Origin: Candidatus Woesebacteria bacterium
Lineage (GTDB): Bacteria; Patescibacteriota; Microgenomatia; UBA8517
Assembly: GCA_016432525.1 (NCBI GenBank)
Contig: CP066693.1
Coordinates: 224,815-288,814, forward strand
Reading direction: 5' to 3'
Length of the DNA: 64,000 bases
Numbering within the stretch: position 1 is the stretch's first letter; every line of letters begins with the position of its first letter. Positions 11,605 through 64,000 of the stretch are shown one piece after another. The notes under the pieces were generated by a model, which was not told where the DNA came from, did no database searches, and saw only the letters and a list, made by a program, of their open reading frames with translations. The position numbers and the translations under genes were made by a program.

Positions 11605-11826
11605 TTACTTCTTCATCCAAATTGGCATTAAATGCCCTAAAACCCCCAAAGTTAAAAGTGAAAGCCCCCATCTAACAGGATGAGCTCCAACATAAGGATA
11701 TGTTATAAGTATTCCAATCCCAACACCCGCTACTACATGTACTGTCGAATTATAAATTGGATGCTTTTCGAAATATTTCATTACCTTCTTGTACATTATT
11801 CTCACCTCCTCATTTATAATAACCAT
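11605..11826 (-). CDS. Small membrane protein (hypothetical)
   Basis: 73 aa with two predicted TM helices. Confidence 0.35.
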   Translation of the reverse strand: MVIINEEVRIMYKKVMKYFEKHPIYNSTVHVVAGVGIGILITYPYVGAHPVRWGLSLLTLGVLGHLMPIWMKK

Positions 11827-11828
11827 AT

Positions 11829-12901: not shown

Positions 12902-12977
12902 TTCGTTTACTCTCCTTATGGGTATTATTTAAAATCTTTTCATAATACACTAAAAACAATCATATTTCTAGCTTAAG

Positions 12978-13049
12978 AGGCCAGAGCGGGAATCGAACCC
13001 GCGCATAGTGGTTTTGCAGACCACGGCGTTTCCACTTCGCCATCTGGCC
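12978..13049 (-). tRNA. tRNA-Cys (anticodon GCA)
   Basis: Reverse complement is GGCCAGAUGGCGAAGUGGAAACGCCGUGGUCUGCAAAACCACUAUGCGCGGGUUCGAUUCCCGCUCUGGCCU. It has a 7-bp acceptor stem, a GG-containing D-loop, anticodon loop CUGCAAA with U33 and A37, and a T-arm GCGGG-UUCGAUU-CCCGC. No encoded CCA. Confidence 0.85.
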
Positions 13050-13099: not shown

Positions 13100-13483
13100 T
13101 CACTTTGCCTTTACGCTAATTTTTCGAGGTCTTGAAGCTTCAGTTTTTGGAATTGTAATTTTTACAACTCCGTTCTCAACTTCAGCCTCAGCTTTATCCC
13201 AAGCTCCTCCTGACAAAGCAGTAGTGTAATAATATTGATAATTTAAAGATGAATATTCTTCTTTCTCTTTCTTTTCCTCACTAACATGTGCCTTAATGGT
13301 TACAACTCCATCTTCTATATCAATATCAACATCGGATGGTTTGACTCCAGCAACAACTGCTTCGACAACGATATCTTTCTCGGTATCTCTGACTTTCAAA
13401 CCTCTTTGAAAGATAGCTTCATCAAAGTCGTTAATCCAACTTGATAAACTTCGAAATGGATCTCGCCTTATTATTGCTGACAT
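13100..13483 (-). CDS. Hsp20/alpha-crystallin family small heat-shock protein
   Basis: 127 aa. N-terminal RRDPFRSL and an alpha-crystallin domain with A..NGV..I..PK at the C-terminus. Confidence 0.85.
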   Translation of the reverse strand: MSAIIRRDPFRSLSSWINDFDEAIFQRGLKVRDTEKDIVVEAVVAGVKPSDVDIDIEDGVVTIKAHVSEEKKEKEEYSSLNYQYYYTTALSGGAWDKAEAEVENGVVKITIPKTEASRPRKISVKAK

Positions 13484-13533: not shown

Positions 13534-13600
13534 AATCATAATAATGACTCTCCCTTTTATTGTCAAGTCTTTTTTGGACTGTTAAACTTGTTAATACTAA

Positions 13601-23997: not shown

Positions 23998-24014
23998 TTT
24001 ATATTACTGAATTC

Positions 24015-24041
24015 AAAAAACCCCATTTTTGGGGTTTTTTG
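24015..24041. terminator. Bidirectional rho-independent terminator AAAAAACCCCATTTTTGGGGTTTTTT
   Basis: CCCC/GGGG stem flanked by an A6 tract and a T6 tract, between convergent genes. Confidence 0.75.
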
Positions 24042-24042
24042 T

Positions 24043-24393
24043 TTACTTCTTTAAAAAATAAAATTCAGCAATTAAAGCCGAAATAATCAAAAGCAAAAAA
24101 TTTAAAAAGTTTCCAATTCCCAGGTATCTAAGTATTAAAAAAATTACCACTACTAAAGAAATCAATAGCCCTCGTCTGCTACTCCCAAGTAGGACCGAGA
24201 ATGTAAAAAGACAAGCAAAAAAAAGATTTACAAAAAATAAAACTAGAATTCCCTTAAAATTCGGATCCAAAAAATAAATCATAAAGAAAAGTGTTACCCA
24301 GAACAAAAAAATTACAAAGAGCGTAGGCAAAATATTTTCCCGGGTGTTTATTTGCTTTTTTTTCTGCCTGTGTATAATGTGAGTTGTGGACAT
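24043..24393 (-). CDS. Membrane protein (hypothetical)
   Basis: 116 aa with three or four TM helices. Confidence 0.4.
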   Translation of the reverse strand: MSTTHIIHRQKKKQINTRENILPTLFVIFLFWVTLFFMIYFLDPNFKGILVLFFVNLFFACLFTFSVLLGSSRRGLLISLVVVIFLILRYLGIGNFLNFLLLIISALIAEFYFLKK

Positions 24394-25240: not shown

Positions 25241-25261
25241 ATAGTATAATCCTCTTAACAT

Positions 25262-28057
25262 ATGCCTAAAAAGAAATTAAATAGAGAGCAGCTTACTGCA
25301 ATTAAATACACCAAAGGGCCTCTTTTAATTGTTGCAGGAGCAGGGACTGGAAAAACGACTGTAATTACTGAAAAAATAAAATATTTAATTAAAAACAATT
25401 TTGCAAACCCCCAAGAAATTTTAGCTCTCACCTTTACAGAAAAGGCATCATTTGAAATGCAAAGTAGGGTAGACGAAGAGCTAGCAGGTTTTTTAGATCT
25501 TTGGATCATGACTTTCCACAGTTTCTGCGACCGCATTCTCCGCGAATATGCTTTTCATGTAGGCCTTCCTAGAAATTACAAACTTTTACAAGAACAGGAG
25601 TCCATTGCTCTTCTCAAAAAAAACATTTTCAAACTTAAACTTGATTACTTCGCGCCTCTTGGAAATCCAACCAAATTTTTAGAAGATTTAAAAAATCACT
25701 TCAGCCGCCTTCAGGATGAAAATATAACCCCCAGTGAGTATTTGAAATTTGCAAAAGGCAAAAAAGACAGAATGACGAAAGAATTAGCCCAAGCCTACAA
25801 AATTTATGATGAAATAAAAATCAAAGAATCCTTTTTGGATTTTGGAGACCTAATCACAAAAACCATCCAACTTTTAAAAACCCGCCCCAATATTAGAAAA
25901 ATTTATCAAGAGAAATTTAAATATTTTTTAATCGATGAATTTCAAGATACAAACTATGCCCAAAATGAGCTAGCTCTTCTTTTAGTAAACAAAGACAAAA
26001 ACATCACAGTAGTGGGGGACGATGATCAGGCAATTTACAGATTTAGGGGCGCGGCGATTTCAAACATTCTAAATTTCCGAAACAAATTTCCGGATTCAAA
26101 AGTAATAGTTCTCAACAAAAACTACAGATCCCCACAAATAATTTTAGATAAAGCATATGATCTGATCAAACACAACAATCCCGACAGACTTGAAGTAACA
26201 GAAAACGTCAATAAAAAACTAATTTCAACCAAAAAGCTTAAAGGAAAAATTAAGTTTATTCACAAAAACAAAGAAACCGAAGAAGTTGAAGAGGTTGCAA
26301 AAAACATAATTGAGTTGACCAAAAAATCTTACGATTTCAAAGATATAGCAATTCTTGTTCGGGCAAATAATCATGCAAATTCATTCATAAAATCTTTTGA
26401 AAGATTAGGTATTCCTTACCAATTCTTAGGTCCAGAAAAACTATTTCAGAAAAAAGAAGTTTTAGAATTAACCTCTTATTTAAAAGTACTACAGGACCCC
26501 GACAACTCGGCATCTTTGTTTAAAGTTTTATCAATTGAAGAGCTGGGGATTAGATCGTTAGATTTAATAAAAATTTCAAATTTGGCAAAAAAGAAAAATA
26601 TAAGCTTATTTGATTCTTGTAAAGATTCAAAAAACGATAAAATTCTGAATATAGTTAATATTGTTGAAAATGATATAGAAAAAACAAAAAAAGAAACAGG
26701 TGGGCAAATCCTATTTTCCTTCTGGGAAAAATCAGGAATTTTATCTCAACTCTCCAAAAATATAGAAGGAAGTCAAGCGAAAATTGAAAACATTGCCAAA
26801 TTTTTTGAAAAAATAAAAACCTTTGAAGAAAACCAAAAAGATCCAAATATTTTTAACTTAGTGGATTGGATTGACTTAAATAGTGAAAAAGCTGATTCAC
26901 AATTTGAAAATAGTAATTGGCAAAACACAAACGCAGTAAACATATTAACTGTTCACGCCTCGAAAGGATTGGAGTTTCCTGTTGTTTTCTTGGTAAATTT
27001 AGTCTCTCTTAGATTTCCATCCCTAGGCAGAAGTGAAGTAATTCCAATTCCAAATGAGTTAATAAAAGAAACTCTTCCAAAAGGCGATTATCACCTCGAG
27101 GAGGAAAGAAGACTTTTTTATGTAGGTGTTACTCGCGCCAAAGAAAAACTTTTTTTAACAGCTGCAAATTACTACGCCGATGCAAAAAGAGAAAAAAAAC
27201 TCTCACCATTTATTTTTGAATCTCTGAGAGATGCAGTCGTTTCTGCTGAATTACCAATTACCAACCCACAACAGCTAACCCTTCGAAATTACGAGAAGGC
27301 TCTTTCACCTCTCCATGTAGATTATTTATCTTATTCTCAAATCGAAACCTTCCAAATCTGTCCGCTTCATTACAAATTAAGATATATTCTAAAACTTCCA
27401 CCAAAAGAGTCAGCAAGCCAAAGTTTTGGTATATCAATCCACAACACACTCGAGGATTTTTACGAAGAGGCAAAAATAAAAAAAATAAATTTAAAATCAC
27501 TTTTTAATCTTTATCAAAATAATTGGATAAACCAAGGATTTCTAGATAAAATCCACGAAGAAAAATTCTTTCAAAAAGGCAAAGAAATGCTCAAAAACTA
27601 CTATCAAAAAGAATTTAACAAAAAAAATATTCCCATTCTTCTTGAACAAAATTTTGTAGCATCACTTACTCACGAAAACCAAAAAATTCAAATAGGAGGC
27701 AAAATTGATAGAGTAGATGAGCTTTCCAATGGGACTATTGAAATAATTGATTACAAAACTGGTAAGTCAAAAACCCAAAAAGAGGTAGATTCTGATTTAC
27801 AACTTACTTTCTATGCTTTAGCGGCAACTAGAATTAAAGAATATCCATTTAACAAAAACCCACAAAAAATAAAATTAACTCTTCATTATCTGGATGAAGG
27901 AATAAAACTTCACACAACTCGTACAAAAAAAGATCTGGAAAAGGCAGTTAAAGAAATTTTTAAAATTAAAAAACAAATTGAAAACTCAGATTTTAAATGT
28001 AACCACGGTTTTCTTTGCCAAAACTGTGAATACTCTATTTTTTGCAAAGAAGAATAA
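25262..28057 (+). CDS. UvrD/PcrA-like SF1 helicase fused to a C-terminal Cas4/RecB-like PD-(D/E)xK nuclease with Cys cluster
   Basis: 931 aa. Walker A GAGTGKT, DEFQDTN, and helicase motifs through VHASKGLEFPVV...YVGVTRAKE. C-terminal GKIDRVDEL...IIDYKTGK nuclease core, ending CNHGFLCQNCEYSIFC. Confidence 0.85.
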   Translation: MPKKKLNREQLTAIKYTKGPLLIVAGAGTGKTTVITEKIKYLIKNNFANPQEILALTFTEKASFEMQSRVDEELAGFLDLWIMTFHSFCDRILREYAFHVGLPRNYKLLQEQESIALLKKNIFKLKLDYFAPLGNPTKFLEDLKNHFSRLQDENITPSEYLKFAKGKKDRMTKELAQAYKIYDEIKIKESFLDFGDLITKTIQLLKTRPNIRKIYQEKFKYFLIDEFQDTNYAQNELALLLVNKDKNITVVGDDDQAIYRFRGAAISNILNFRNKFPDSKVIVLNKNYRSPQIILDKAYDLIKHNNPDRLEVTENVNKKLISTKKLKGKIKFIHKNKETEEVEEVAKNIIELTKKSYDFKDIAILVRANNHANSFIKSFERLGIPYQFLGPEKLFQKKEVLELTSYLKVLQDPDNSASLFKVLSIEELGIRSLDLIKISNLAKKKNISLFDSCKDSKNDKILNIVNIVENDIEKTKKETGGQILFSFWEKSGILSQLSKNIEGSQAKIENIAKFFEKIKTFEENQKDPNIFNLVDWIDLNSEKADSQFENSNWQNTNAVNILTVHASKGLEFPVVFLVNLVSLRFPSLGRSEVIPIPNELIKETLPKGDYHLEEERRLFYVGVTRAKEKLFLTAANYYADAKREKKLSPFIFESLRDAVVSAELPITNPQQLTLRNYEKALSPLHVDYLSYSQIETFQICPLHYKLRYILKLPPKESASQSFGISIHNTLEDFYEEAKIKKINLKSLFNLYQNNWINQGFLDKIHEEKFFQKGKEMLKNYYQKEFNKKNIPILLEQNFVASLTHENQKIQIGGKIDRVDELSNGTIEIIDYKTGKSKTQKEVDSDLQLTFYALAATRIKEYPFNKNPQKIKLTLHYLDEGIKLHTTRTKKDLEKAVKEIFKIKKQIENSDFKCNHGFLCQNCEYSIFCKEE

Positions 28058-28061
28058 AAAT

Positions 28062-28090
28062 TTGACAACCCATAACTATTTTGATATTAT
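28062..28090 (+). promoter_or_regulatory. Near-consensus sigma70-type promoter TTGACA-N17-TATTAT
   Basis: TTGACA 28062-28067, 17-nt spacer, TATTAT 28085-28090. It points into the gene-free intergenic region between convergent genes. Confidence 0.4.
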
Positions 28091-28096
28091 ATCCAC

Positions 28097-28310
28097 ATCG
28101 TCCGATTCGATTTGTTTTTGGCCAAAATAGCGTCAAAAAAAAGGAGAATTTGTATGAGTCCTCCCAAGAATCGTTTCGCTCAATTCGCTTATTAATTCGT
28201 CACCGGCCCGGCCGCGAAAGTCCTTGAGAGGATAATCGCAAGCGTGACGGGGAGTGAACCGTAAATCGATTTATCTTTATCGGTTTCCACTCCTCGCCAC
28301 GCCTCTTACT
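28097..28310 (+). ncRNA. Candidate structured small RNA of unknown class (GC-rich island with long hairpin)
   Basis: Downstream of the promoter lies AAGGAG then a 13-codon mini-ORF (MSPPKNRFAQFAY). It is followed by a GC-rich segment that folds into GCGAAAGUCCU-UGAG-AGGAUAAUCGC and a ~20-bp interrupted hairpin GCGUGACGGGGAGUGAACCG...CGGUUUCCACUCCUCGCCACGC. Local GC is clearly above its surroundings by eye. Confidence 0.3.
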
Positions 28311-28573
28311 TACTTCAAGCCCATAACTAAAAACCCATATTTTTCAATGTCCTCTTTTTTCCAAAATTTTTGATCCTTAGTTTTCAATACAAAAGTGATC
28401 TTTTTAGAAATTTCTCTCCCTGTATACTTTTGTGTTCCTGGGTCGTATTCTTTCAAGATTAACGTGTCTCCTGGTTCGCACTCAAAATCCGCAATTCTCA
28501 TATCAAAGTTTTTAGTGCCAGATAATATTTTTTCAAACATAGTAGGCCATGTTTTCTTTTCAATTTTTCTCAT
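28310..28573 (-). CDS. ASCH/DUF3850-like small protein
   Basis: 87 aa. KTWPTMFEKILSGTKNFDMR...GDTLILKEY resembles ASCH-fold PUA-like proteins. Confidence 0.45.
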   Translation of the reverse strand: MRKIEKKTWPTMFEKILSGTKNFDMRIADFECEPGDTLILKEYDPGTQKYTGREISKKITFVLKTKDQKFWKKEDIEKYGFLVMGLK

Positions 28574-28630
28574 TTGGATATGTTATAATTCCAAGTAAAG
28601 CATAACACAAGGAGGTGTTTATGCGTGTTC

Positions 28631-29503
28631 TTAACACAGTGGTAGTGGTGGCCGAAAACTCATATTATTTCCTAAAAAATCTGTTTTAACAAAACATCCA
28701 GGGTAACTAATTTCTTTACCTCCAAAACTTTTCTTAAAATGACTAAATCCAAGCCATGATCCATTCGGAAACCTTTTGTCATAAATTCCCTCAAAATCAA
28801 ATATCTTTGCCTTATTTTTCTTGCTCCACAAAATTCCTTCCCAAACTATTTTGTATTGGTAAAGTTTCTTTCTTCCGTCTTTATTAGTAAACGCTTGCCA
28901 ATAGTAAGAAACATCTCCTGAGTTTAAAAATATCGCCCCCGAGTCACTTTTTTCTGAAGTTACAAACAGAGAATTCTTTCTAAAAGCTTTCTTCAGCTCA
29001 ATAAGATGTTGAAGTGGGGGAACATACCTTTTGATTCCAACCGCTCCTTTCCAATAATTTCTAAAATCATTTAAATCTCCTAATTCATACTTTCTAATAT
29101 TCAATCTATTATTTTTTTTAATCGCACTTCTGCAATCTTTTTCAAAATCTGTAAAAATTTTTTCTTTTCTTTGCTTTAAATCAATTTGCAATGTCTTCGT
29201 TGGAAGATATGGAGATTTACTTAACTTAAATCCATTTGCTTTGCATTCTGCGCTTTGAGTTTCATTTATAGGTTCAATAATAATCTGAAAAACTCTGTGT
29301 TTTTGGGCAATCTTTCCAATTTTTTGAAAATCCATATTTTGACCAGGTCTCTGAATTTTCAAAACACTTCCAATTAAAGGAAATTTCTTTACAAAAACAG
29401 AAACTTTGTCAATTTTTTCTACATTCCACCCAATTCTTGAAAGATATCTTGCGTATTCTTTGCTTTGTCTAATATCCTGCATTTCAAAAACTTGGGGAAA
29501 CAA
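28631..29503 (-). CDS. FemAB-family (aminoacyl-tRNA-dependent peptidoglycan aminoacyltransferase-like) protein, short paralog
   Basis: 290 aa. CRSAIKKNNRLNIRKYE (K.R.NIRK block), GDVSYYWQAF and the aromatic-rich C-terminus are typical of Fem/MurM proteins. Confidence 0.55.
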   Translation of the reverse strand: MFPQVFEMQDIRQSKEYARYLSRIGWNVEKIDKVSVFVKKFPLIGSVLKIQRPGQNMDFQKIGKIAQKHRVFQIIIEPINETQSAECKANGFKLSKSPYLPTKTLQIDLKQRKEKIFTDFEKDCRSAIKKNNRLNIRKYELGDLNDFRNYWKGAVGIKRYVPPLQHLIELKKAFRKNSLFVTSEKSDSGAIFLNSGDVSYYWQAFTNKDGRKKLYQYKIVWEGILWSKKNKAKIFDFEGIYDKRFPNGSWLGFSHFKKSFGGKEISYPGCFVKTDFLGNNMSFRPPLPLC

Positions 29504-39619: not shown

Positions 39620-40165
39620 TTATACTTTAGTTAGTTTAATAGTAAACGTTACAAACGGATTATCTTCACTCATATCAAATCCAGTCAAAGTTATATTTGA
39701 AAACAAATTTGTAGCCTTAAGGTTTGAGATCAATTGAACAATCGATTGTTCAGAAAAACTATCTGCCTTTAAACTTATACCATCCTTGTCTGATGTTAAA
39801 GTGTCCAAAACAATATCATTAGGAAGAGCAGAAGTAATCTTAGAAAAAACTGAAGAAGTCAAATTTTTACTAGAAGTAATTGATGAAAATATAGAAATTT
39901 TTGCTTGTATGTTTTTAAACTCATTTTCAAATTTAGAAAAAGACGCAATTACAGCTTTTTTTGATTGGATCTGATCTGTTAAATCGTTCGACCTGGCGTC
40001 CAAAAAAAATCTTGAAATAAAAGCCAAAATCACAACAAATTCAGTAACAATAACAATAATTCTAAAGCTAGAAAGTACCCAATTTAAAATTCTTGCTCTT
40101 ACATCTGACTCTTCCTGTAAATTTGGAAGTAAATTTATACTGTTATTTTTCTCTCGGGCAGCCAC
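39620..40165 (-). CDS. pilN: Type IV pilus assembly protein PilN-like
   Basis: 181 aa. INLLP N-terminal motif, single TM, and periplasmic domain. Confidence 0.65.
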   Translation of the reverse strand: MAAREKNNSINLLPNLQEESDVRARILNWVLSSFRIIVIVTEFVVILAFISRFFLDARSNDLTDQIQSKKAVIASFSKFENEFKNIQAKISIFSSITSSKNLTSSVFSKITSALPNDIVLDTLTSDKDGISLKADSFSEQSIVQLISNLKATNLFSNITLTGFDMSEDNPFVTFTIKLTKV

Positions 40166-40199
40166 ACTTCAATATACCACAAAAATCTTAGTTTGTGTC

Positions 40200-40490
40200 T
40201 TACTTCTTCAAAACTTTTTTGGATATCTTTTTTGGAGTTTTTTCTTTCTTCATACTTTTCAAAGCTACTGCAGAAATTCTTGCTTTAATTCTTGAAGCCT
40301 TATTTTTGTGAATCAATTTTTTCTTTGCAGCTCGATCAGCCAAAGAATAAACATTATCTATATCCTTTTCGGCATGACTTTTTAGAGCTTTCCTAATTGC
40401 ATAAGAAAGACGCGATGTAATAATCTTATTGACAACGGCCTTTTTCTCGGATGAACGAAGGGCTCTTTTTGCTGTTTTTGTAACTGGCAT
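40200..40490 (-). CDS. rpsT: 30S ribosomal protein S20
   Basis: 96 aa, basic; MPVTKTAKRALRSSEKK... Confidence 0.8.
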   Translation of the reverse strand: MPVTKTAKRALRSSEKKAVVNKIITSRLSYAIRKALKSHAEKDIDNVYSLADRAAKKKLIHKNKASRIKARISAVALKSMKKEKTPKKISKKVLKK

Positions 40491-40526
40491 AGCTTTAAAG
40501 TATAATCCGAAAAAGCCAAAAATTCA

Positions 40527-42176
40527 ATGGTAAATAGTTTTTTTAAAAAAAGTAAAAAAATATTGCTTTCTCAACAGCAATCAACTCTTTCTGCTGCTGC
40601 AATAATTATAATAATGTCTGTAGCTTCATATATTCTAGGATTTGTCAGACAAAGAATTATTTTATCCTATTTTACTCCTCAACAGACCAGCCTTTTCTTT
40701 GCAAGCTTTAGGCTTTCAGATCTCATTTTTGAAATCTTAATCTTTGGAACTTACACTTCAGCTCTTATCCCGATACTTACAAAAACATTAAAAGCTGATG
40801 GAGAAAAAAAAGCCTGGGAAGTTTCATCACGATTTTTGACTATCACTATTGTAATTTTTGCCCTCTTTGCAACTATCGTAGGCCTTTTCTCAAACTCATT
40901 CTATAAAATAATAACCCCAGGCTTTTCAGATCTCGATATTCAAAAAGTAGCAAATCTTTCTCGAATTCTTCTAATCTCTCAGGTAATTTTTGTCGCAAGC
41001 TATATTCTTTCAGGAACTCTGGAAGCCTCCAAGAGATTTTTAATTCCAGCTCTAGCTCCAGTCTTCTACAATCTCGGAATAGTTATTGGTATTTTGTTTC
41101 TGTCTGAAAGATTTGATCTTACGGGTGCAGCAATTGCTGTAGTAATTGGAGCCACTCTCCATTTCATGATCCAATTACCTTTAGCTCTTAAACTTGGTTT
41201 TAGACCAAGTCTTTCCCTGAAACTAACCCAAGAAGTCAAATCGATTACAAAACTAGCCCTTCCTCGAATTGTTGACCTCAGCTTTGATCAAATACAACAA
41301 ACAATAGAACTATTTCTTGCATCTTTAATCTCAACTGCCTCATATACTTATTTCACCCTTGGAACAACAATTAGATTGCTACCTGTAAGCCTTTTTGGTT
41401 CCTCTCTTGCAAAAGCTGCCTTTTCAACTCTTTCAGAGCAAAAAGATGAGCCTCAAAAATTTGCAAGAACATTTCTTGCAACTGCATATCAAATTCTTTT
41501 TTGTGTTATCCCTATAGCAACTCTTTTTATAGTCTTAAGAATTCCAGTAAGCCGTCTTTTCTTTGGTACAAAAAATTTTGATTGGCAGGCAACAGTAGAA
41601 ACAGGTTTTGTAATTGCAGCCTTTGCCGTTGCGATTGTTGTACAGAGTTTAGGTCTACTTTTAGAAAGAGCATTTTATGCTCTTCATGATACCCAAACTC
41701 CTGTCTCAATTTCCTTAATTACAACATCAATAATAATCGTTAGTGAATTTATTCTTGTACAAAACCTTCACCTTCCTGTCTGGAGTCTGGCTGCTTCAGC
41801 TTCAGTAGGAATATCATTCCAAATAACCATTCTTATCTTTTTGCTTCAAAAGAGAACAATAAAACTTGTGAGTTTTAAAAATTTCATTCCAATCTTCAAA
41901 ATTATATTAAGCTCTTTCCTGGCTGGTTTAGTAATGTATCTTTTAATGAAAATTTTAGATGTAGCCATTTTTGACACTCAATACACTATAAATCTCTTAA
42001 TTCTTACCCTAATCGTAGCTCTGTCAGGTTTGATAACCTATATAGGAATTTGTTTCATTCTAAAACTAGACGAAGTAACTCTAATTATAAAACTTGTCAA
42101 AAACCAAATTAAGCTTGCTAAACCGAAACCAGGTGTCGAGCCTCTTACTCCCCCTGCTAGTGAAAACCTAAGCTAG
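40527..42176 (+). CDS. murJ: Lipid II flippase MurJ (MviN)
   Basis: 549 aa with 14 TM helices. N-terminal ...SRILGFVRQ...-like block and conserved Arg/Asp positions. Confidence 0.85.
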   Translation: MVNSFFKKSKKILLSQQQSTLSAAAIIIIMSVASYILGFVRQRIILSYFTPQQTSLFFASFRLSDLIFEILIFGTYTSALIPILTKTLKADGEKKAWEVSSRFLTITIVIFALFATIVGLFSNSFYKIITPGFSDLDIQKVANLSRILLISQVIFVASYILSGTLEASKRFLIPALAPVFYNLGIVIGILFLSERFDLTGAAIAVVIGATLHFMIQLPLALKLGFRPSLSLKLTQEVKSITKLALPRIVDLSFDQIQQTIELFLASLISTASYTYFTLGTTIRLLPVSLFGSSLAKAAFSTLSEQKDEPQKFARTFLATAYQILFCVIPIATLFIVLRIPVSRLFFGTKNFDWQATVETGFVIAAFAVAIVVQSLGLLLERAFYALHDTQTPVSISLITTSIIIVSEFILVQNLHLPVWSLAASASVGISFQITILIFLLQKRTIKLVSFKNFIPIFKIILSSFLAGLVMYLLMKILDVAIFDTQYTINLLILTLIVALSGLITYIGICFILKLDEVTLIIKLVKNQIKLAKPKPGVEPLTPPASENLS

Positions 42177-61682: not shown

Positions 61683-61976
61683 TTATGGAAAAATATCCTC
61701 CTAATCACCACTCCTCAATGACCTTGAAAGAAGCAATTGAATTAGGAGAATATAATCCTCAATTTCAAACGATAAGGGAGCTCTTGAAAATAGAAGACAC
61801 CATCTTTTGGTTCAATGGGCAGAAATAAACAACATGTTTGATTTTAGTAAAAAACCAGACCTACAGGAAGCTTTAAAAAATATTGAAAAAGATAGGAAAA
61901 AAATCTATTTTGAATTCTCCAAGGTCGCATAACTTCTCCTAGCCTCTTTTAATGATACTGCTATAATGAATCTACA

Positions 61977-64000
61977 ATGGGTAAAAAGAAAAAAAAGAAT
62001 CGAGCAAAGAATAAAAAAGCTTTTAGATTAAAGTTAAAGCCACATACAGTTCATTCTGTTGCTCAACTTACTTTCTTCGCCATGGCTGCTCTCATTTCCA
62101 TTTCTTTCGCAAGACGTGGTCTAATTCTAATCGGAATAAATGATTTTCTTTTTGATTTCTTTGGCTGGGCAACAATTTTTTTACCATTTATATTTTTATC
62201 TTTCGGTTTTTACGTTTCAAAATTCAAAAACCCACTAAGTCAGCCAAACGTTGTTTTAGGAGGTCTAATTTTTTCAATTTCAATGACAGCTCTCACAAAA
62301 TCAGGCAAAATTGGACTTCAAATTTCTGACTTTTTCATAACTTTATTAACCTCAACCGGAGCAACAGTTCTTTTTTTAGCAATGTTATTTATCGGTATTG
62401 TTATTCTTTTCAATACTTCCGTAGATCAACTCATGAAATCTTTTGTTTCGCTTCTCAAATACACTAAAAAATTTCTAGTCGCAGAAAAAGAAACAGGTTT
62501 AGGCAAAAATATAAAACTAGACAGAAAAGAATTAAAAGTGATAGGAGGGAATTCCAATTTTAAGATAAATTCTCCTCCAAAGCTCGATGCGAACAAAAAG
62601 CCAGTTGAAGAAAAACTAGAAGCAAAGCTCGTAAGTAATATGCCCGGTGAAGAACAGGTTTGGAAATACCCTCCAGTGAATCTTTTGGTAAGTGAAGAAA
62701 CTCACAAAGCCGATCGTGGAGACATTAAAGGGAATGCAGCAGTTATAGAGCAAACCCTCGAATCATTTGGAATAACAGCACGAGTTGTCGAAGTAAACAT
62801 GGGCCCAGCAGTTACTCGCTACGCTCTAGAAGTAGCCCTTGGCACTAAGCTCTCAAAAATTACAGCTCTCGAGCGAGATCTTGCTCTTGCCCTTGCAGCT
62901 CCAGGCGGCTCAATCCGTGTAGAAGCCCCAATTCCTGGAAGATCTTTAGTTGGAATTGAGCTTCCAAATAAGAGCCCAGAATTTGTTCCATTAAGAAAAA
63001 TGATGAGCTCGGATATAATGAGAGAATCCACTTCCAAGTTAACTGTAGCCTTGGGTCTTGATGTTGCAGGTGAGCCAGTTGTTGCAAATATTTCTCGTAT
63101 GCCTCATGTTTTAATAGCTGGCCAAACAGGATCAGGAAAATCAGTCTGTATCAATACTTTTCTAGCCTCACTTCTCTTTCGCGCCTCACCTCAAGAAGTA
63201 AAACTTATTCTAGTTGATCCTAAAAGAGTAGAGCTTACAGGCTATAACGATATTCCTCATCTTTTAACTCCAGTAATAGTTGAACCCGAAAAAGTAATCT
63301 CTGCTCTTCGTTGGGTCCTCTCAGAAATGGAAAGGCGCTACAAGCTCTTCCAGCAAGCAGGAGTAAGAAATCTTGAAAGTTACAATGAAATGTCAGGATT
63401 TCAAGCTCTTCCTTATATTGTTGTAGTTATAGATGAACTTGCAGATATTATGCTTTTCTCTCCAGTCGAAGTTGAGGATTCAATTACTCGAATAGCTCAA
63501 ATGAGCCGCGCCACAGGCATACACATGGTTCTTGCAACCCAAAGACCATCCGTTGATGTTATAACAGGTCTTATTAAAGCAAACATTCCAGCTCGTATTG
63601 CATTTGCAGTAAGCTCTCAAGTTGATTCTCGCGTTATTTTGGATGGCAAAGGAGCTGAAAAATTATTAGGCCGTGGAGATATGCTTTATTTAACTCCAGA
63701 ACAGGCAAAGCCAATGCGTATTCAAGGCGCTTTTATTTCAGATAAAGAAATTTCATCTCTAGTCTCATTCATTAAAAACCAGGGCATTGCTCCTCAATAC
63801 ACCGAAGAGGTAACTGCAATGTCCCGACCAGGAGCTGTTAAAATTGCAGGAATTGAAGGGGACACAGACGATCTTTTCAAAGAAGCAGTAAAAGTAGTGG
63901 TTCAATACGATAAGGCATCAGCATCTCTTTTACAAAGGCGTCTTTCAATAGGTTACGCGCGGGCAGCACGAATAATTGATCAACTAGAAGCAGCCGGCGT
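61977..64000 (+). CDS. ftsK: DNA translocase FtsK/SpoIIIE (5'-partial in window; continues beyond the end)
   Basis: N-terminal TM helices, a linker, then the motor: LIAGQTGSGKSV is Walker A, VVVIDELAD is Walker B, and LATQRPS, through the start of the gamma-domain (ASASLLQRRLSIGYARAARIIDQLE). There is no in-window stop, which is why the ORF track omits it. Confidence 0.85.
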   Translation, partial: MGKKKKKNRAKNKKAFRLKLKPHTVHSVAQLTFFAMAALISISFARRGLILIGINDFLFDFFGWATIFLPFIFLSFGFYVSKFKNPLSQPNVVLGGLIFSISMTALTKSGKIGLQISDFFITLLTSTGATVLFLAMLFIGIVILFNTSVDQLMKSFVSLLKYTKKFLVAEKETGLGKNIKLDRKELKVIGGNSNFKINSPPKLDANKKPVEEKLEAKLVSNMPGEEQVWKYPPVNLLVSEETHKADRGDIKGNAAVIEQTLESFGITARVVEVNMGPAVTRYALEVALGTKLSKITALERDLALALAAPGGSIRVEAPIPGRSLVGIELPNKSPEFVPLRKMMSSDIMRESTSKLTVALGLDVAGEPVVANISRMPHVLIAGQTGSGKSVCINTFLASLLFRASPQEVKLILVDPKRVELTGYNDIPHLLTPVIVEPEKVISALRWVLSEMERRYKLFQQAGVRNLESYNEMSGFQALPYIVVVIDELADIMLFSPVEVEDSITRIAQMSRATGIHMVLATQRPSVDVITGLIKANIPARIAFAVSSQVDSRVILDGKGAEKLLGRGDMLYLTPEQAKPMRIQGAFISDKEISSLVSFIKNQGIAPQYTEEVTAMSRPGAVKIAGIEGDTDDLFKEAVKVVVQYDKASASLLQRRLSIGYARAARIIDQLEAAG

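Follow-up and report, generated by a model that had tools for sequence, protein, structure and literature searches.

A conserved spacer between converging genes of a Candidatus Woesebacteria genome as a probable new small RNA gene

Results

In a Candidatus Woesebacteria genome (Patescibacteria/CPR), the 252-nt spacer (28058-28309) that separates two converging genes is very likely a functional conserved element, and we favor, as the probable reading of its sequence, an independently transcribed small RNA (sRNA) gene on the plus strand that would represent a new, narrowly distributed family. All positions are those of the 64-kb stretch of DNA that was analysed as a whole, hereafter the window. 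Genomes of CPR/Patescibacteria are tiny and have almost no intergenic space, and our search of the literature on this group found no described sRNAs or riboregulators.

Genomic setting of the spacer

The left neighbor of the spacer encodes a 931-aa UvrD-type helicase fused to a PD-(D/E)XK nuclease on the plus strand and ends at 28057, while the right neighbor, encoding an 87-aa DUF3850 protein on the minus strand, ends at 28310 and is the last gene of a pcrA-femAB-femAB-DUF3850 series. Every gene 3′ of 28310 lies on the minus strand up to 32276, a distance of ~4 kb. No gene was called inside the spacer in any of four assemblies, in agreement with the convergent, gene-free region that a preliminary description of this DNA had reported. 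The same description had listed a TTGACA-N17-TATTAT promoter, a Shine-Dalgarno sequence followed by a 13-codon mini-ORF, and a GC-rich segment with a ~20-bp interrupted hairpin and a second, smaller hairpin; all of these features are present at the positions given below, and its implied coordinates were off by no more than one base. The spacer region is the same in the NCBI contig JACOTY010000017.1 and in two Logan assemblies. In JACOTY010000017.1, 92 nt of the helicase gene (window 27748-27839; around 3730 in L036) are missing, which are present in the window and in the two Logan assemblies. The helicase is annotated as 837 aa in that contig because of the missing 92 nt, a difference that reflects either an error of assembly or variation between strains.

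A near-consensus promoter at the left end of the spacer

Promoter scanning assigned a −35 hexamer TTGACA to 28062-28067 and an extended −10 element, made up of TG (28082-28083), one base and TATTAT (28085-28090), to the same plus strand. This promoter, TTGACA-17-TGnTATTAT, has 11 of 12 consensus matches plus the extended −10. Just three sites with 11 of 12 matches occur in the 64-kb window when both strands (128 kb) are counted, of which the spacer's alone has the TG, and the chance expectation of such a promoter in 252 nt on one strand is about 0.006. Another 11/12 site, with identical hexamers, is located at 13538-13566 on the minus strand, ~48 nt upstream of an Hsp20 gene (13100-13483, minus strand), which has a strong AAGGAGG Shine-Dalgarno sequence and a tRNA-Cys gene just downstream. 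Since the same hexamers precede this Shine-Dalgarno-led gene, consensus promoters appear to be in real use in this genome. For the spacer, promoter geometry predicts a transcription start at A28097, 7 nt 3′ of the −10 element.

Conservation of the spacer in a close relative

Searching with the DUF3850 protein led to the one close relative available for comparison, a metagenome contig of 3.7 kb from NCBI (L125) that encodes a protein with 91% identity to the query. On L125 the helicase C-terminus is 88% identical to that of the window, neighboring proteins are 88-91% identical, and a spacer of 253 nt aligns with the window spacer over its full length. Between the two sequences, third codon positions differ by 23% in the helicase C-terminus, 28% in DUF3850 and 22% in the second femAB gene. 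In comparison, the promoter part of the spacer (28058-28100) carries 6 substitutions in 43 nt (14%), and the block that follows (28101-28309) carries 5 substitutions in 209 nt (2.4%) and one 1-nt indel, which is ~tenfold less divergence than at synonymous sites (Fisher p=2.7e-14, block against third codon positions). The substitutions in the promoter part (28061, 28071, 28079, 28092, 28093 and 28095) all fall outside the −35, TG and −10 elements, and the −35 hexamer is the same in L125 though its adjacent base, 28061, has changed. The last variable site in this part is 28095 and invariance begins at 28096, one base before the predicted start A28097. As far as a comparison of two sequences can show it, the element is under purifying selection at the nucleotide level, beginning at the predicted start.

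Two of the five substitutions in the conserved block, G28242A and C28302U, turn the outermost G-C pair of the predicted hairpin 2 (described below) into A-U and are thus compensatory, with a chance probability that we estimate at roughly 0.01-0.03. The others are U28276A in the apical loop of the same hairpin, 28129 A>G in the 5′ domain, and an Ala12Val change in the mini-ORF. With the element present in no more than two genomes, this covariation amounts to a single pair, and it favors neither strand, since the change to A-U fits both. Conservation of the spacer in related genomes had been named in the preliminary description as a check, and L125 does keep the spacer, with intact promoter elements and one compensatory pair.

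Predicted 5′ domain and mini-ORF

The putative transcript would begin with an AT-rich 5′ domain (28097-28153, plus strand) that contains a palindrome, TTTTGGCCAAAA, at 28116-28127, an A8 run at 28135-28142 and the sequence AAGGAG at 28141-28146. Over these 57 nt, L125 differs from the window by the single substitution 28129 A>G and by an additional A in the A-run. UCGAUUU at 28107-28113 is fully complementary to AAAUCGA at 28264-28270, in the apical loop of hairpin 2, with both segments invariant in L125, and the two could form a pseudoknot.

AAGGAG lies 7 nt before the ATG of a plus-strand mini-ORF of 13 codons, MSPPKNRFAQFAY (28154-28195, with the ATG at 28154 and the TAA at 28193-28195). 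CCUCC within the mini-ORF is complementary to GGAG of the Shine-Dalgarno sequence, and AAGGAG, the short ORF and UCCUCCC are able to pair mutually; according to folding, the Shine-Dalgarno sequence and the AUG can be sequestered in a hairpin of −5.6 kcal/mol. The mini-ORF of L125 has a single change, GCT>GTT, which is the Ala12Val mentioned above, and its third codon positions are unchanged, with 0 changes observed against about 3 expected at the flanking rate. Because of this lack of third-position changes, and because the UTR and the 110 nt downstream are equally conserved, the constraint acts on the nucleotides and not on the peptide. A protein database search with the mini-ORF pseudo-extended by bridging its stop codons found no homologue, and protein homology was absent from all frames tested.

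GC-rich 3′ half, hairpins and possible 3′ end

GC content is 0.51-0.56 at 28150-28310, compared with 0.35 for the window. When the 11 intergenic gaps of at least 120 nt in the window were compared, an 80-nt stretch with a GC content of at least 0.5 was found in the tRNA-Cys gap, in this spacer and in one other. Two hairpins are predicted here on the plus strand. Hairpin 1 (28214-28239) consists of GCGA / AA / GUCCU, a UGAG loop, and AGGAU / AA / UCGC; it has a folding energy of −11.1 kcal/mol (z −3.2) and is invariant in L125. Hairpin 2 (28242-28302) is an interrupted stem of about 22 bp with one A/C mismatch and an AT-rich apical loop, and folds at −25.3 kcal/mol, with z-scores of −4.8 (plus strand) and −6.2 (minus strand). 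A U-rich tail, CUCUUACUUACUU, follows at 28303-28315 on the plus strand, where it overlaps the stop and last codon of DUF3850 on the opposite strand and is conserved in L125. The terminator scan did not call an intrinsic terminator after hairpin 2 on the plus strand, CUCUUACUUACUU standing in place of a U-run; the tail is a possible non-canonical termination tract.

Searches for known families and further copies

Rfam 15, which covers SRP RNA, RNase P, 6S, tmRNA, riboswitches and ribozymes among others, at the gathering score gave tRNA-Cys at 12978 as the only match in the whole window and nothing in the spacer, and searches at E<=10 on 27900-28700 and at E<=5 on L125 returned only eukaryotic miRNA and snoRNA noise far below threshold. 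ARAGORN likewise detected no tRNA or tmRNA in the spacer, the tRNA-Cys at 12977-13049 being the only one in the window. The preliminary description had matched the element to no known RNA family, which is borne out here by zero Rfam family matches even at E<=10; its proposal of an unclassified, promoter-driven structured sRNA is supported by the same result and by the tenfold reduced divergence in L125. Its further suggestion of a leader peptide found no support, since no gene follows on the same strand and the variation in the ORF is not codon-like.

Several other identities were considered and rejected. 6S RNA does not fit, because the predicted folds consist of several hairpins, the two ends cannot pair with each other and there is no Rfam match. 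A resemblance to RNase P CR-I (GAAAGUCC) was judged a chance 8-mer, the element being too short and matching no model. A leader-peptide attenuator is excluded by the minus-strand genes that extend to 32276, with no same-strand gene downstream, and a type I toxin-antitoxin by the hydrophilic nature of the 13-residue peptide. A minus-strand ORF of 32 codons starting with GTG is preceded by no Shine-Dalgarno sequence at a suitable distance, and the two changes that L125 shows in it are non-synonymous. A pseudogene was rejected after tblastn with the genes that occupy this slot in relatives (GATase, ASCH, Phd, ParE and a hypothetical gene) was negative; a MITE or IS-derived element, because it shows no terminal inverted repeats and no target-site duplication and is single-copy in the window; and a replication terminus or dif site, because the GC skew has no turning point at 28 kb.

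No relative of the spacer was found by BLAST among phages and plasmids, and exact-pattern scans with four segments against viral contigs and with one against metagenome contigs gave one chance 18-mer (L041). Helicase-anchored loci, 34 from GTDB and 80 from JGI metagenomes, gave no nhmmer, blastn or covariance-model match; these loci are too distant (27-57% identity) and are without a DUF3850 neighbor. By the same three methods, no further copy of the element was found in 129 fetched loci.

A variable slot in distant relatives

None of the helicase homologues listed falls between 100% and 58% identity. Seven Woesebacteria relatives with helicase identities of 54-59% share the gene order, and in six of the seven there is no spacer, the converging genes abutting or overlapping. 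A distance of 0-5 nt separates the helicase gene from the DUF3850 gene in three of them (L038, L040 and L127), the end of the helicase gene is overlapped by femAB in two (L122 and L123), and a GATase-ASCH pair overlaps it by 4 nt in L124. L039 is the only distant relative with a spacer, which is 444 nt long, unrelated, and accompanied by a Phd/ParE toxin-antitoxin module. Because six of seven relatives with the same gene order have no spacer, the 252 nt are lineage-specific. The slot between helicase and femAB contains DUF3850, ASCH with GATase, Phd/ParE, or nothing among these relatives; genes come and go at this place in the chromosome, and the putative sRNA gene was acquired there by one lineage. 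Some relatives have inteins (Hint / Intein_splicing; L038 8194-8841, P0014, P0022) in their PcrA and helicase homologues, and in an unrelated context (L128 2257-2763) a gene for an IS200/IS605-type Y1 transposase adjoins a 71%-identical DUF3850 homologue.

Discussion

We infer transcription of the element, its plus-strand direction, the position of its 3′ end and a regulatory role from the features described above. A strong sigma-70-type promoter would start transcription at about A28097 and give a transcript of about 205-220 nt with an AT-rich 5′ half and a GC-rich 3′ half. The 5′ half would carry the Shine-Dalgarno-like AAGGAG, the 13-codon ORF and an anti-Shine-Dalgarno-like UCCUCCC that pairs with AAGGAG, and the 3′ half would carry the two hairpins and then the U-rich tail, with termination after hairpin 2. 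The hairpins would most likely terminate transcription, shield the 3′ end and act as an insulator between the two operons that converge here, and the 5′ half would be the likely working part, acting by base-pairing with mRNA or by protein binding. The role of such an sRNA is probably regulatory, and candidate modes are mRNA pairing, protein binding and antisense interference with the DUF3850 operon. Target complementarity within the 64-kb window was limited to 11-13-mers, located either on the wrong strand or far within a gene.

The strand is the point on which the folding data and the conservation data differ. Over the whole range, the predicted fold is more stable on the minus strand (−60.5 kcal/mol, z −3.0) than on the plus strand (−53.2 kcal/mol, z −2.35, or about −2.4), and a long-range helix at 28152-28234 is favored on the minus strand only, through G-U pairs. 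In a minus-strand model the 28129 change also converts G-U to G-C. Furthermore, a terminator-like hairpin of 7 bp with a 10-nt loop, followed by U8, is found on the minus strand at 28135-28165, 145 nt downstream of the DUF3850 stop, in the same DNA as the plus-strand A8 run and Shine-Dalgarno sequence. The spacer could thus hold a functional RNA of the minus strand, namely a structured 3′ UTR of the pcrA-femAB-femAB-DUF3850 operon whose transcription ends at the small hairpin and U8, with the plus-strand Shine-Dalgarno sequence and ATG as by-products of the terminator. We regard this as unlikely. That hairpin is weak (−6.3 kcal/mol, z −1.5), relatives manage without any spacer, and conservation runs past the U8 through 28097-28134 and stops exactly at the plus-strand start; this stretch lies beyond the minus-strand U8 tract, so that its conservation is better fitted by a plus-strand RNA. 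The plus strand is favored also because the promoter hexamers are kept amid variable neighbors and the conserved block starts at the predicted start. Nevertheless, given the better fold of the minus strand and the hairpin with U8, the spacer could also serve as 3′ UTR and terminator of the DUF3850 operon.

We hold two further readings to be improbable, and to about the same degree. In one, the spacer would be a tiny protein gene, with promoter, 5′ UTR, Shine-Dalgarno sequence, a 13-residue peptide and a large terminator, or a dual-function RNA in which the peptide matters. The perfect AAGGAG 7 nt before the ATG is what such a gene would have, Shine-Dalgarno-led genes such as Hsp20 do exist in this genome, and both genomes keep the ORF open, the Ala>Val change being a conservative one. 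However, most genes here are without a Shine-Dalgarno sequence, the one in the spacer can be hidden together with its AUG in the −5.6 kcal/mol hairpin, the database search gave no peptide homologues, and zero third-position changes against about 3 expected, in an ORF whose UTR and 110 downstream nucleotides are just as conserved, is not the pattern of a protein gene. In the other, the spacer would be what a lost cassette or mobile element left behind, such as an orphaned promoter and leader with no function, and its high identity between the two genomes would be due to recent transfer, recombination or assembly artefact. The variable slot and the GC content unlike that of the host would agree with this, as would a 10-bp direct repeat, CCCATAACTA, on both sides of the element. 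The right copy of the repeat, however, lies inside the conserved DUF3850 coding sequence, whose C-terminus (..LK*) aligns with that of relatives to its end, and the copies match at 7 of 10 positions in L125. Since the right copy is ancestral coding sequence and the repeat has decayed to 7/10 there, it is not a target-site duplication. Nor were there terminal inverted repeats, other copies in the window, the 129 loci or the phage, plasmid, viral and metagenome collections, or detectable remnants of the neighbors' accessory proteins. The promoter part has diverged by 14%, which places the insertion before the split of the two lineages, and the boundary of the block coincides with the start site. 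In principle, the low divergence might still be due to recent recombination, with a tract that happens to match the transcript, or to a mixture of strains in the metagenome contig L125, which is 3.7 kb long.

Also unlikely, and more so than the minus-strand transcript, is that the element founds a new family of structured RNAs, gained by a single Woesebacteria lineage through horizontal transfer, and binds a protein or the ribosome, for example as a Shine-Dalgarno/anti-Shine-Dalgarno mimic or sponge. Horizontal acquisition is suggested by the GC content of the element, 54% in a genome of 35%, and the near-total constraint on its nucleotides would then arise because the RNA binds protein or ribosome and is not a simple antisense. 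If this were true, no functional RNA outside the housekeeping set would have been recognised in a CPR episymbiont before it.

Compared with known systems, the element is new as an RNA family, and by type it belongs with the ordinary small RNA genes of bacteria. C-rich (UCCC) sRNAs such as RsaE/RoxS target Shine-Dalgarno sequences, and the putative sRNA resembles independent regulatory sRNAs of this kind in its own strong promoter, a length of ~200 nt, a structured 3′ end, a location between converging genes, a divergence ~1/10 that of synonymous sites, and the C-rich motif UCCUCCC. It is unlike them in having no Rfam match and no canonical poly-U terminator, and in its CPR host. SgrS/SgrT, RNAIII/hld and SR1/SR1P are dual-function sRNAs, with which the element shares a structured, regulatory-looking RNA and a small ORF preceded by a Shine-Dalgarno sequence, although this ORF has only 13 codons, shows no codon-type conservation, and its translation is putative. 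The promoter, the short Shine-Dalgarno-led ORF, alternative pairings between the ORF and a downstream hairpin, and a strong hairpin are also found in leader-peptide attenuators, which differ in having a downstream gene on the same strand, where the next 4 kb are here on the opposite one. Bidirectional intrinsic terminators are similar in placing strong hairpins between converging operons with an A-run on one side and a U-rich tract on the other. In contrast to these, the element is tenfold longer than the ordinary ones of this genome (28 nt, 24014-24041) and has its own promoter, and relatives have no spacer at all at this junction.

If the sRNA reading is true, episymbionts with reduced genomes still acquire riboregulators and retain them, here at a junction where relatives have no spacer. 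The reach of this is limited to an element known from two closely related genomes, and with a defined promoter, predicted start and structure it is a candidate for metatranscriptome mapping.

Other observations in the window

In 16 of 51 long ORFs, a TATAAT-like box ends 5-11 nt ahead of the start codon, compared with 6.5% at random positions, and only about a quarter of the long ORFs have a Shine-Dalgarno sequence. Many genes in the window look leaderless, for example those with boxes at 25242-25261 (upstream of the helicase), 24366-24385 and 11809-11828. A 1.2-kb region at 61683-62859 has no ORF of at least 60 aa, a GC-rich end at 62764-62978 and no Rfam match at E<=1, and may be a decayed gene or an unrecognised RNA. 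GC skew changes around 40000-42000 from consistently negative to about zero or positive, which may mark a replication origin or terminus.
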